NCBI GenBank assembly: GCA_016839555.1 | Contig: JAEOUA010000001.1 | Location: 246,043-310,042, forward strand | Direction of reading: 5' to 3' | DNA length: 64,000 bases | Origin: Promethearchaeota archaeon | GTDB taxonomy: Archaea; Asgardarchaeota; Lokiarchaeia; Sigyniarchaeales; SOKP01 | Shown here: positions 46,231-62,069 of the stretch, one piece after another | Layout of the letters: the number at the start of each line of letters is the position of its first letter | How positions within the stretch are numbered: position 1 is the stretch's first letter | Position numbers and translations under genes: made by a program | Notes under the pieces: model-generated | What the model was told of the DNA's origin: nothing | The model's database searches: none | Seen by the model: the letters and a program-made list of their open reading frames with translations, nothing else

Positions 46231-49200
46231 TTGGTAATTCCATTAAGTTGGGATTGTTGCTATCTATATATTCTTTTTATTAACCGATGCTCCGTAATTG
46301 CCTCGGTAGCATCGCAGAACCCTCTAGTAGGAATGGGATTATATACCATGCTACATATCGTTCGGGGATTGGATCAGACCATGCAACAACAAGAGCTTTT
46401 AAAGAGTGCTTTCCACTCGTCCTTGTATATGGGAGAAATTCCCCTCTCAAGAAAACTTCCCGGTGATCAATACGACATTTGGGAGGAACTCAGCCTCCAA
46501 CTGCCCACCCACTGGAACAATATCCCAGCTCTCAAAACAGTTTACGCGCCCGTGCAAAGTATCTCAGAATATTTCACCTACAATGGCTATATCGTTACCT
46601 CAAAAGGCTTCACAACTGCCACTAAAGGCTTCAATATCTATACGGGCGTTTTGGATATTGAAGGGGATACTTCAGAACATCTCTCGATCGAGCTAAATGA
46701 ATTTTTAACATTATACTTATTAAATACTAAGCTATATCCTACTAATAATATTCCCTACTTAGAGCAAATTGCTTGGCGTTTATCCAAAACTGATCCCTCC
46801 TTGGAGCACCCCTTCGATAGGATTGTACCTCAGTTCATTTCAGGCGCCCCCAGCTTCGTGTTCGCTTCGTCTGAAGGATCATTGGTATTACCCGACTTCT
46901 ACGAGGAATATCCCCTCATGGGTCGCGTTTCCACAACCATAGATCCAAATTATTGGATCTATAAGGGTATAGGAATTTACTCTACATATACCGATGATCA
47001 ACTCGATGCACTGCGAATCTTTCGGCTCATTCCAGAAGATTCCATTCATCCCCTTAAATCCAATATTGCTTGCATTGAAGTTCGCCTTAATCTTTATGAG
47101 GAAGACAAAAGCCCGTTAATAATGACCCTATTTCCTCAAGATTATTCCTATGATCCAAGCACTAGACAGGTCACTATTAATAAAAACGTATTTGAGAGGA
47201 TAAAAAGCATTATAAGAGATTGTTTTGAGCCTTATAGTGGGCAAGAAAAGAGGGGATATTTTGAGTATAAGATCAATATAGAAACGGGACGCTCTATTTA
47301 TGATCCCAACGACGATCTTTCGGATGCTCAAGCGCAGAAGATCGCCCTCATGCAAGCCGTGCAGCTTTACATGCTTCAATATTATAACGAGTTTACACAG
47401 GGTGCCGCCCGCGCGCAAATCGACTTCGAGACGGTCTATACCGTGACCCTCACCACCATCAGCACCGCAATTACCCTAGCTGTCGGTATTGCCGCTTCCT
47501 CTGCATTTGCGGCTGAAGAGGTTATAAGTTCAAGTATTCAACAAGTAGTTCCCGCAGCGACTCGGGGTAGTCTCATTGCTGCTCAAGTCGTTCTTTCGGT
47601 CGCCTCTGAAAATCTAGAAGAGCTCTTCTTGGATCCCCTCATCGAGAGCGTCGTCACGGACTTAGTGAAAGACCTCGGTGGCGATGAGAAGGCACAAGTA
47701 ATTGCAAGTGTCCTCGCAGAATCCATCAGAGAAGGGTTAATGGGTACGGTTGCTGACTTCTCCCATATTAACATTATGAATAATCTTCAAAATCTGGTAT
47801 TTAACCACTATCAAGAGGCAATCATGTCCACCGCATCCGAACTTGCAACCCTGCACGCCTTCAGTGAATATCAACAACTCCTTGCCGAGCAACCAGGCTA
47901 CACCCTCGGGCCCATCCCGCTGTCCGCATTATCCACCTTGACTCTCTTTATCCCCTCTATGATAGCTGAATCCTTCTATATTCGGCAAGATGCCACTTCG
48001 GGCGAGGTGTTACACTTTCTCAGGGGGCTCACCGACTTCGGCATCAAAGGAGACTTCCTCAGATCCATCATACGAAATATGCATACCGCCGACAGCACCG
48101 CAGAAATAATCGGAACGCAGGAGATCGCCCCCGGCATCACCGCAGAGGTGTCTAATCCTGTCCTGCTCGCTCTTAAAAACGTCCTCGAAGATATTGCCTC
48201 TTCCCGATTAGCCTCCATACAAGATAAGAAGCCGTGCTCGCAGGAAGATATCAATGTTCTTAGAGAACAGTTTCTATCGGGAGAGATTGGTATAGAATTC
48301 ACCTTCATGTATGATGGCGGCGGAATTGATTATGGAGGAGATATGGGGATTCCTTTTGGAATAGATTTGCAAAATAACAAAAGAATTAAAAAGGTAAATA
48401 CACAGTCCCAGACCCATGAAAAAACCATGATAACATCAATTTTCAATTATCAAAAAACCTTAGATGAATGGTTGGGAGAGAATAATCATATTGAAGAAAT
48501 ACTACTGAGGAATTTAGAAGAAATAGCTAAGAGTAAAACAACTAATGATCAAAAAAAACATTATGCATTGTTAGTTGAAGGTTTTGATTCAAGATTCTCG
48601 TTGAAAGTGGCGAAAAGAATAGAGATTGATGAGCTTGCCTCAATTTTTGAACAGCAAGATGGTCCAAAATTTAAAGAATTCTTTGAGGTATTAAATCAAA
48701 TGCAAAATCCATTTGGAGCAAGAGTAGAAGAATTTATTCAAAAAAGAGATGAGAGCGGTAAGAAGCTCAGGTATAAAGATGCAAGACTTTTCATGGATGA
48801 TACTTTACTGGAAAGCATTAAAGAAGATATTCTTCAAAACCTTATACGAGCCACAGGAAAAAGCAAATACTTTTTTGAGGAGATAAATCCAAAAACGTTT
48901 GAGAAATTTGTCAAATATTACCAAGAAAATGATAAAGAATTTTATGAGAATTACTTACAAGAAGGCTTTTCTGATATGCTATTAAAGTATTTTGTCAATT
49001 TTGAAGTCCCTTTTCTTATCTGGTCTCAATATTTAGAACAGGATCAGACCAAATTAACGGAGTTAAAAGATTTTTATATGCAAAATTGGGATAAGGATGC
49101 TAAAAATTTGCAGAGAATTATTTGGGGGGTGCTGTTAGACTGCTATCATCCCCTCTTAGGTCAAAAGATTAAGATTGCCGATTGGGTTTCCTTAGACCTC

Positions 49201-49569
49201 CATCATTGGATGACCGCCTCCGGACACGAAAATAAATATTCTTGTCTACTTTTTTCGGTATTCCCTCTTCCTAGCGACCTTCGACTTGGAGAACCAATCC
49301 ATCTTCAATTAACGGGGCAAATAGAAAATAATCCCACAATAATGGGTACCCATTGGGAAAATCAAATAAGTGATGTGATTACAGCAGTTCTTAAGGGAGA
49401 TGTTCCATCCTCTACCATCTGGAAAGATGAAGAATATAATCAAAAATTTGATCAATACCAAAAATTGAATGAGAATGCAAGAAAAACAATAATTTGGTTA
49501 TTTTTATACTCTCATAGTGATTTAATAATAAGATTTAATCTAGAAAAAATAGATTTCTATTTTAAATAG
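46231..49569 (+). CDS. Putative polymorphic toxin: GC-rich N-region with hydrophobic helices, junction motif, then HNH-like (HHW) tip; true start uncertain
   Basis: KVNTQSQTHEKT at about aa 721; tip DCYHPLLG...LHHW...HENKY is homologous to 52938..54356; followed by an LRR gene. Confidence 0.7.
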   Translation: MVIPLSWDCCYLYILFINRCSVIASVASQNPLVGMGLYTMLHIVRGLDQTMQQQELLKSAFHSSLYMGEIPLSRKLPGDQYDIWEELSLQLPTHWNNIPALKTVYAPVQSISEYFTYNGYIVTSKGFTTATKGFNIYTGVLDIEGDTSEHLSIELNEFLTLYLLNTKLYPTNNIPYLEQIAWRLSKTDPSLEHPFDRIVPQFISGAPSFVFASSEGSLVLPDFYEEYPLMGRVSTTIDPNYWIYKGIGIYSTYTDDQLDALRIFRLIPEDSIHPLKSNIACIEVRLNLYEEDKSPLIMTLFPQDYSYDPSTRQVTINKNVFERIKSIIRDCFEPYSGQEKRGYFEYKINIETGRSIYDPNDDLSDAQAQKIALMQAVQLYMLQYYNEFTQGAARAQIDFETVYTVTLTTISTAITLAVGIAASSAFAAEEVISSSIQQVVPAATRGSLIAAQVVLSVASENLEELFLDPLIESVVTDLVKDLGGDEKAQVIASVLAESIREGLMGTVADFSHINIMNNLQNLVFNHYQEAIMSTASELATLHAFSEYQQLLAEQPGYTLGPIPLSALSTLTLFIPSMIAESFYIRQDATSGEVLHFLRGLTDFGIKGDFLRSIIRNMHTADSTAEIIGTQEIAPGITAEVSNPVLLALKNVLEDIASSRLASIQDKKPCSQEDINVLREQFLSGEIGIEFTFMYDGGGIDYGGDMGIPFGIDLQNNKRIKKVNTQSQTHEKTMITSIFNYQKTLDEWLGENNHIEEILLRNLEEIAKSKTTNDQKKHYALLVEGFDSRFSLKVAKRIEIDELASIFEQQDGPKFKEFFEVLNQMQNPFGARVEEFIQKRDESGKKLRYKDARLFMDDTLLESIKEDILQNLIRATGKSKYFFEEINPKTFEKFVKYYQENDKEFYENYLQEGFSDMLLKYFVNFEVPFLIWSQYLEQDQTKLTELKDFYMQNWDKDAKNLQRIIWGVLLDCYHPLLGQKIKIADWVSLDLHHWMTASGHENKYSCLLFSVFPLPSDLRLGEPIHLQLTGQIENNPTIMGTHWENQISDVITAVLKGDVPSSTIWKDEEYNQKFDQYQKLNENARKTIIWLFLYSHSDLIIRFNLEKIDFYFK
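48389..48428 (+). repeat. Junction repeat J1 (aaaaggtaaatacacagtcccagacccatgaaaaaaccat)
   Basis: Read directly; identical to the reverse complement of 59536-59575. Confidence 0.95.
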
Positions 49570-49607
49570 AGTAATATAAAAAGAACAATTTAAATATATT
49601 AAAAGAA

Positions 49608-61623: not shown

Positions 61624-61634
61624 GGTAAACCTAA

Positions 61635-62069
61635 ATGAAACTAATACTTAAAAAGATTAAATATGTAGGAGATAAAAATGGAAAACTTCCTTATGAACAT
61701 GTCTATATTGGAGAATTTGAAACAGGAAAAAAAATTCAAATTGAAGATTACAGTTGCCAAATTTCAAAAGATTACATTAATAGAAAAATTGAGTGTTTAC
61801 TATATCCATATTTAGGTAAAAATCCTTATGAACGGGCTAAAAGTTATTATGAATATGAAATTAAAGGAGAGTTTTTAGGTGAATATTCTTTTTTTGAGGA
61901 TTGGAGTGAGAGCACCCGAGATTTAAATGATCTTCATGGTGTTAAAACTGAAGAAGGTGTTTTTTGTATAGATTCCAATTATATGAAAGATTTCTCCATC
62001 AAGAAAGGGGATTTGGTAATCTTTTTCACAGATCGTATTTCTCTTTTTGCTTGGCGGTTAATTGAATAA
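61635..62069 (+). CDS. Putative immunity protein, family I
   Basis: Ends KGDLVIFFTDRISLFAWRLIE; directly after the toxin tip, with a GAGG RBS. Confidence 0.7.
   Translation: MKLILKKIKYVGDKNGKLPYEHVYIGEFETGKKIQIEDYSCQISKDYINRKIECLLYPYLGKNPYERAKSYYEYEIKGEFLGEYSFFEDWSESTRDLNDLHGVKTEEGVFCIDSNYMKDFSIKKGDLVIFFTDRISLFAWRLIE

Follow-up and report, generated by a model that had tools for sequence, protein, structure and literature searches.

The stretch of DNA analysed here (the window) comprises 64,000 nucleotides (nt) of a Promethearchaeota archaeon of the Lokiarchaeia (assembly GCA_016839555.1, contig JAEOUA010000001.1, positions 246,043 to 310,042) and contains an island of putative toxin genes in which a 40-nt junction sequence, J, occurs four times (J1 to J4). 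Comparison with related archaea led us to conclude that J is probably the attachment site of small integrative elements of one Lokiarchaeia family, which re-arm giant toxin genes with new C-terminal regions (tips). The grounds are the repeat itself, its conservation at the DNA level, its fixed link to a recombinase, units bounded by direct repeats, partner switching at J and the truncation of the acceptor gene. From these we predict excision and integration by the element's own enzyme, as well as toxicity, immunity and autoproteolysis of the products. The source assembly is 3.74 Mb in 12 contigs and 92% complete; the right edge of the window (64000) is the end of its contig, here C4.

The four J copies reported in an earlier note on this DNA were all recovered at their positions, and no other match was found in the 3.74 Mb genome when up to 11 mismatches were allowed. 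When scored with a 45-nt profile built from relatives, the window copies reached 43-48 bits and the next best of 7.5 million positions 7.9 bits. J1 lies in frame inside an open reading frame (ORF) of 1112 residues, beginning at residue 721, and all four copies start long frames in one shared phase, giving tips of 392, 467, 323 and 520 residues. Both points agree with the note, as does the lack of a start at the J2 and J3 junctions, upstream of which the frames remain open for 13 and 57 codons, respectively, with no ATG. The J4 ORF has an ATG of its own at 60001, in addition to the first codon of the junction. Within the whole genome, J1 and J3 form one of only two exact inverted repeats of at least 40 nt within 30 kb; the other lies on contig C7 (65720-67373). 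The window thereby has a shufflon-type feature, namely several short repeats, in part inverted, that lead in frame into alternative C-terminal segments. The exact J pattern had no match in the genome-contig or viral-contig collections searched.

Contigs carrying both J and a recombinase were reached by searching relatives with tip3. In these relatives J adjoins a ribbon-helix-helix (RHH; NikA-like) gene and a gene for a tyrosine recombinase (PF00589, E=6e-24, motifs R-K-H-x-x-R-H-Y). At 14 loci from several assemblies the distance from J, which lies upstream and on the opposite strand, to the start of the recombinase gene is exactly 597 nt. It lies within 900 nt of 17 of the 36 scorable recombinase genes, and of none of the nine that fall below 56% identity. 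Of 134 genomes in the window's family 19 have the recombinase, as do four of the six in its genus; it was found in no other family among 400 genomes searched, and not in the viral-contig collection searched. Of its 173 homologues, those that are named come from Asgard metagenome-assembled genomes (MAGs) or unassigned metagenomes, and the NCBI labels of the linked homologues bear out the Asgard (Promethearchaeota/Lokiarchaeia-type) origin guessed in the earlier note from the letters of the sequence.

Read along the tip strand, a unit in the relatives consists of J, a tip, its partner gene, cargo with a second repeat (R), the recombinase and RHH genes on the opposite strand, and the next J. Such J-bounded units measure 3.7-9.3 kb. 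Two contigs, G075:C168 and G104:C122, hold a toxin ORF with an internal J, one whole unit (9.3 and 6.9 kb, respectively) and, beyond the second J, a displaced tip; tandem units were found on G104:C129, L166, L173, L178 and L179. Thirteen contigs have J pairs in direct orientation and two (L166 and G104:C112) in inverted orientation. The relatives therefore show the features of integrative elements, a catalytic recombinase at a fixed distance from its attachment (att) site and units bounded by direct repeats. These units, together with the recombinase linkage, support the earlier proposal that J is a site-specific recombination site. Because a D5-type primase gene adjoins the element recombinase in L168 (8298-9830), some elements may replicate. 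Short direct J arrays of 2-5 sites, free of recombinase and mostly spaced at 0.7-3.5 kb, were also seen in L223 (G098:C12), L224 (G118:C4) and L158 (G159:C3); these may be stores of cassettes or units in decay. In L080, L082, L126, L127, L166 and others a G-rich 22-nt repeat is found in constant orientation 3' of the tip-plus-partner pair, and it ends in a motif like the left arm of J.

The 1112-residue gene proved to be 5'-truncated, at a remnant that resembles a transposon end. On contig C9 the ORF beside the matching stretch encodes a DDE transposase (DDE_Tnp_1, E=1e-10), and the remnant resembles sequence just upstream of it. The acceptor is 46% identical to residues 340-1052 of protein P0002, with homology beginning at acceptor residue 38, and lacks at least 340 residues and probably thousands. 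Its family consists of giant Lokiarchaeia proteins with variable C-termini, the open frames of homologues extending up to 12,725 residues; the expected pattern of a conserved N-region with varying C-termini was seen among relatives. In five other genomes toxin ORFs, one of them at least 6266 residues long, contain J in frame, and the linkers before J are unrelated. Most members of the family have no J, including the closest relatives of the acceptor and its paralogues in the same genome. As the linkers are unrelated and most members have no J, it appears that J was carried into a subset of toxin genes. The four N-region paralogues in this genome (C11:282806-286189, C11:308841-311789, C11:3855-9089 and C7:3-4076) have differing C-termini and no J, several being cut by contig ends or starting mid-protein. 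Contigs of G010 and G017 that share the N-region were considered as inversion isomers and rejected, since they are 84-97% identical paralogues without J. No export signal was found in the homologous frames examined, the N-termini of which are mostly cut or split.

The arrangement suggests how such an element would act. Excision between two direct J copies would yield a circle with one J, and integration of this circle at a J within a giant toxin gene would join the tip of the element to the delivery region in one reading frame. The old tip and its immunity gene would be pushed downstream, behind the RHH gene, and repeated rounds would lead to arrays of spare tips. The window would represent a decayed array, with a 5'-cut acceptor, a J3-J2 unit of 5.2 kb, and J2 and J4 heading further units, some of which face the opposite way. 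Since J pairs are mostly direct and units carry their own recombinase, we favour tip displacement by an integrative element as the main mechanism. A recombinase supplied in trans could also invert the 11-kb J1-J3 segment as a by-product, which is possible judging by the sites because J1 and J3 are identical and inverted.

Reversible shufflon inversion, the main mechanism put forward in the earlier note, did not hold up as such. It would make the locus an active R64-like shufflon, with J1 x J2/J3 inversion catalysed by a recombinase encoded past the contig end or elsewhere. The predicted products are in frame, as the computed J1xJ2 and J1xJ3 frames are open over 1187 and 1043 residues, and joining the N-region to tip4 at J also gives an open frame, of 1240 residues. 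J1 and J3 are inverted and identical at 40 of 40 positions, convergent cassette pairs recur in G104:C112, L166 and probably G005:C59, the contig ends 2.4 kb past tip4, and variant tip3-like contigs (see below) hint at unassembled cassettes. Set against this, the relatives mostly have direct repeats and one recombinase of their own per unit, the acceptor is cut by at least 340 residues and probably by thousands, no cognate recombinase was found in the assembly, and J2 and J4 differ from J1 at the centre of the site. We therefore consider an active shufflon quite improbable. A single tyrosine recombinase gene turned up in the assembly, a distant XerA-like one on C10 whose product has 27% identity to the enzyme of the elements, and neither a serine resolvase nor an IS110 transposase was found in this genome. 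It is unlikely that the same site serves both tip import and reversible switching of the J1/J3 type, active here via an unassembled copy of the recombinase.

By its pattern of substitutions J is a DNA-level site, with constraint on the DNA rather than on the peptide. Across 52 distinct J sites of relatives, 37 single-base codon changes were synonymous and 143 non-synonymous (21% synonymous, with 19% expected under neutrality); a control stretch of the recombinase gene gave 29 and 18 (62% synonymous). No stop codon was found inside J in the 52 sites. Among the window copies every difference within J alters an amino acid, and between J2 and J3 the changes are only non-synonymous inside J, with five of six changes synonymous in the eight codons after it. 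The best dyad in J is centred on position 20, where arm complementarity is 55% compared with a median of 27%. A search for the J pattern in the family returned at least 14 genomes and no control matches, an undercount as the pattern was one base out of register. In G004, two left flanks of 447 nt (97% identical) diverge to different tips about 10 nt into J, and in G104 three recombinase-side flanks (93-98% identical) run on into unrelated tips. One site of L166 matches J from the left as far as about position 26 and diverges thereafter. The points of divergence in G004 and L166 suggest that the crossover is bracketed to J positions 11-26, in line with the dyad centre.

These observations also bear on a reading in which ordinary orphan cassettes are exchanged by homologous recombination at a peptide junction, such as VENN in CdiA or DPxG in Rhs, and the recombinase is a bystander. 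The layout does fit the orphan arrays of contact-dependent growth inhibition (CDI) and Rhs loci, and G020:C147 has the longer duplications typical of homologous recombination. However, J has no synonymous excess, the closest homologues of the acceptor have no J, the acceptors' linkers before J are unrelated, and the spacing to the recombinase is a constant 597 nt; 40 bp is also short for RadA-type recombination. We consider such exchange very unlikely.

The features of the island are collected in table 1. J3 and J2 form a direct repeat on the minus strand with a spacing of 5232 nt, and between them lie tip3 with its partner, the orphan tip with its partner, two cargo genes, an R repeat, the PIN-type pair and the 77-residue ORF. 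When set beside the relatives' units, J3-J2 is a decayed, non-autonomous unit that appears to have lost its RHH and recombinase genes. J2 heads a second unit (tip2, leucine-rich repeat (LRR) gene, cargo and R), which lies tail to tail with tip1 and its LRR gene, and J4 is at the head of a third, on the plus strand. The window and the relatives' units have in common the R repeat, the families of tips and of partner genes, and PIN cargo. The same-genus contig G005:C59 carries a J identical to the window's at 34 of 37 positions, the recombinase, a partner gene of the same family and two copies of R. The local alignment of the flank beside J2 beats shuffled sequences (p=0.006); those of the J1, J3 and J4 flanks were not significant.

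Table 1. Features of the island, in order of position in the window (tetratricopeptide repeat, TPR).
Feature	Position	Strand	Remarks
85-nt remnant	46199-46283		87% identical to C9:83263-83347; gives the acceptor ORF its TTG start
Putative acceptor toxin ORF, 1112 aa	46231-49569	+	conserved N-region of ~680 aa (45% GC), J1, tip1 (32% GC)
J1 site	48389-48428	+	in frame, codon 721 of the 1112-aa ORF
Tip1, 392 aa	48391-49569	+	conserved HP-x2-G and LHHW motifs in C-terminal domain
LRR protein, candidate tip1 immunity	49608-50465	+	Pfam LRR_14/LRR_8; 38% identical to tip2 partner
R repeat, copy 1	50492-50618	+	second, ~130-nt repeat family of the element
Cargo gene of J2 unit, 253 aa	50796-51557	-	no family
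LRR protein, candidate tip2 immunity	52036-52872	-	LRR by Pfam
Tip2, 467 aa from J2	52938-54341	-	probably displaced; no ATG of its own; tip1 homologue
J2 site	54304-54343	-	37/40 vs J1; right boundary of the apparently decayed J3-J2 unit
Flank beside J2	54344-54423	-	resembles relatives' recombinase-side arm preceding J
77-aa ORF	54464-54697	+	at the RHH-gene position of relatives; not an RHH homologue
UPF0175 + PIN/DUF3368 toxin-antitoxin-like pair	55012-55785	+	PIN genes recur in relatives' units
R repeat, copy 2, long form	55881-56061	+	R family
Two cargo genes, 102 and 224 aa	56206-57262	-	no family
Candidate immunity gene, orphan-tip partner	57283-57753	-	same family as genes at 58154 and 61635
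Orphan tip	57750-58154	-	no start, no junction; homologous to tip3/tip4 C-terminal domain; stop overlaps next ATG
Candidate tip3 immunity	58154-58594	-	homologues come after related tips in relatives
Tip3, 323 aa	58602-59573	-	S24/S26-like Ser/His peptidase domain, then BECR-like RNase domain
J3 site	59536-59575	-	40/40 identical to J1, inverted relative to J1
Spacer between back-to-back J3 and J4, 483 nt	59576-60058		first part 43% GC
Tip4 ORF, 540 aa	60001-61623	+	C-terminal domain related to that of tip3; close homologue in L166
J4 site	60059-60098	+	34/40 vs J1; 32/36 over the span given in the earlier note
Candidate tip4 immunity	61635-62069	+	same partner family as that of tip3
R repeat, copy 3, long form	62343-62534	-	R family
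TPR cargo gene	62511-63710	+	TPR match
R repeat, copy 4	63754-63868	+	R family

Within this genome R occurs only in the island, and it is also found within the relatives' units. It had no Rfam match in the 44-64 kb scanned and no attC core motif by eye. Copies 1 and 4 are without the 5' part common to copies 2 and 3 and are located where the orientation of units flips, so R could itself be another site of recombination. The orientation of copy 4 suggests another minus-strand unit past the contig end. The GC-rich J3-J4 spacer, which has a short hairpin near 59945, has no homologue in the genome or the loci. Just upstream of the island is a stand-alone gene for a CDC48 N-domain (45070-45567), with two paralogues elsewhere in the genome, and at 11436-17997 genes that by eye resemble NAD-dependent ligase, PolX/PHP and exonuclease III lie close together.

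The tips had been described as different at each J. The C-terminal regions do differ, but they are not all unrelated and belong to two families. Tip1 and tip2 are 28% identical over 301 residues, and each is followed by an LRR gene; tip3, tip4 and the orphan tip have a common C-terminal domain and partners from one family of 144-156 residues. Likewise, the gene after each tip is co-oriented, with a gap of 7-65 nt, but two of these supposedly small genes encode LRR proteins of 278-285 residues. The tip-LRR pairing was also found in relatives, and in all the genomes compared a given family of tips goes with a partner family of its own; L166, which holds the close tip4 homologue, is an element-bearing metagenome contig. 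Conserved N-region, variable C-termini, linked tip-specific partner and orphan modules together make up the polymorphic-toxin layout recognized in the earlier note. Gene order suggests that the partners are immunity genes.

The N-terminal domain of tip3 has a weak match to Peptidase_S24/S26 (E 0.006; homologues down to 3e-5). This domain, with an invariant G-x-S-M and a conserved His, directly precedes many tips and is a plausible release protease. For the C-terminal domain, three weak tests agree that the tip3 family resembles BECR-fold RNases of the CdiA/colicin D type: the profile matches CdiA-CT 7M5F (E=0.004), the top fold matches of the model are the CdiA-CTs 7M5F and 8EY4 and colicin D (Z 6.5, 6.0 and 5.6), and a language-model search with the domain returned PBECR clusters. 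Tip3 may be impaired, because Lys replaces the His of its homologues in the G-x-x-H motif. In tips 1 and 2 an invariant LHHW motif is suggestive of an HNH-like nuclease, by eye only; a language-model match of these tips to phage 'Dynein_C' clusters was of low recognition and was not used. The tips are most likely nucleases directed against neighbouring microbes, some of them perhaps released by the S24/S26-like domain.

The swapped C-termini might instead be adhesion, recognition or other variable domains, with partners that are not immunity genes. Such a function would suit tips 1 and 2, which match no family or fold, as well as the Lys of tip3 and the lack of an export signal in the truncated homologues examined. 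We give it very little weight: three methods liken the tip3/tip4 family to CdiA and colicin D RNases, tip and partner families stay matched from genome to genome, and many tips come directly after a peptidase-like domain.

The assembly was compared with Logan contigs, available as contigs only, from three runs of one study, possibly of the source sample. At J2 and J4 these run through the junction just as the assembly does, and they also link J1 with tip1 and J3 with the spacer. As they break at J1 and J3, the orientation of the 11-kb J1-J3 segment was neither confirmed nor seen to vary; no strand-change joints are listed in the Logan contigs, which is uninformative for a 40-bp repeat. In two runs the initial 400 nt of tip3 also occur as variant copies, whose depth follows that of the genome (about 10 in X1, 5-6 in X2), so more cassettes probably lie outside the assembly. 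One contig (X1, depth 10) joins a variant tip3 start back to back with a J copy (59486-59573, 48387-48421), which may be a real arrangement or a graph artefact. That the island itself is an assembly artefact at short repeats is hardly credible: the window does end at a contig end and Logan contigs do break at J1 and J3, but they agree with the assembly at the joints named above, leaving only the orientation of the J1-J3 segment unconfirmed, the four J copies differ, and the same architecture occurs in many other assemblies.

Several observations weigh against integrative elements that deliver nuclease tips. Because the relatives are kin, and most of them are fragmented MAGs, the counts given above are not independent and should not be read as statistics. 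Neither the cognate recombinase nor the RHH gene was found in this 92%-complete assembly, no circular form or empty site was seen, and 15 contigs had no terminal repeats. Simple tandem integration would leave no inverted J pairs, yet half of those in the window are inverted; the converging units might be explained by insertion, in either orientation, at secondary sites or by recombination at R. The centre of J varies between copies, and classical tyrosine recombinases tolerate less variation there than the J copies show. Many copies may therefore be inactive, or the enzyme may be tolerant. The tip3 model has a mean pLDDT of 56 and its fold matches have Z under 8, and for tips 1 and 2 fold searches gave nothing above background.

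By analogy, the locus would work like tip displacement in Rhs and CDI systems, with a site-specific recombinase as an added component. As in Rhs/CdiA-CT/CdiI arrays, a new tip would be fused to the core and the old tip and partner shunted downstream into arrays, and the tip3 family resembles CdiA-CT RNases. Unlike in those systems, there is a dedicated tyrosine recombinase with a 40-bp DNA site, an Asgard host and an undescribed family of giant carriers. Displacement of Rhs C-termini via proposed homologous-recombination circles was described by Jackson et al. 2009 (PMC2935791), with no associated integrase noted. The R64/IncI shufflon (PilV, Rci) is alike in its short in-frame repeats, some of them inverted, its alternative C-termini and its tyrosine recombinase chemistry. 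That shufflon has one fixed recombinase and inverted sites only, whereas the present sites are mostly direct, a recombinase and a candidate immunity gene come with each unit, and the window copy is without the enzyme. On two features the locus does not belong with R64: its constant N-terminal gene is not intact, and its sites are mostly direct across the family. In a survey of gene-altering inversions in bacteria (PMC9881135) the word 'toxin' does not occur. The rAID islands of Bacteroidales (PMC12247911) resemble these elements in having a tyrosine recombinase beside an array of conflict genes and conserved intergenic motifs; they differ in gathering orphan immunity genes only, with one recombinase and no toxin frame rebuilt. 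The stationary-recombinase layout of integrons and rAID is not seen in the relatives, where each unit carries its own recombinase. Archaeal tyrosine-recombinase elements (SSV/pTN3/SNJ2 types) and bacterial islands that insert into coding genes (dusA, prfC) are similar in their tyrosine recombinase with an adjacent small DNA-binding gene, direct-repeat att sites and tandem insertion. Those elements and islands restore their target gene, whereas the element described here would swap the target's C-terminus for a new function. The outcome of tyrosine recombination depends on site orientation (review PMC8371274); in that review 'Asgard', 'Lokiarchae' and 'toxin' do not occur.

We found no published description of this system, in a search that was without Makarova et al. 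2019 on archaeal polymorphic toxins. The window copy appears to be a decayed example, and its proposed function is read from comparison with relatives. The gain of a tip without loss of old ones has so far been explained by a postulated circle with no known enzyme (PMC2935791). Here comparison identified the enzyme, the DNA site and the unit boundaries alike, and the model can thus be tested in vitro. The elements add an undescribed tyrosine-recombinase family of 173 homologues with an apparently tolerant site. For the biology of the hosts, they would be tangible evidence that Asgard archaea possess machinery for conflict between cells, in which LRR proteins are candidate partners for immunity.

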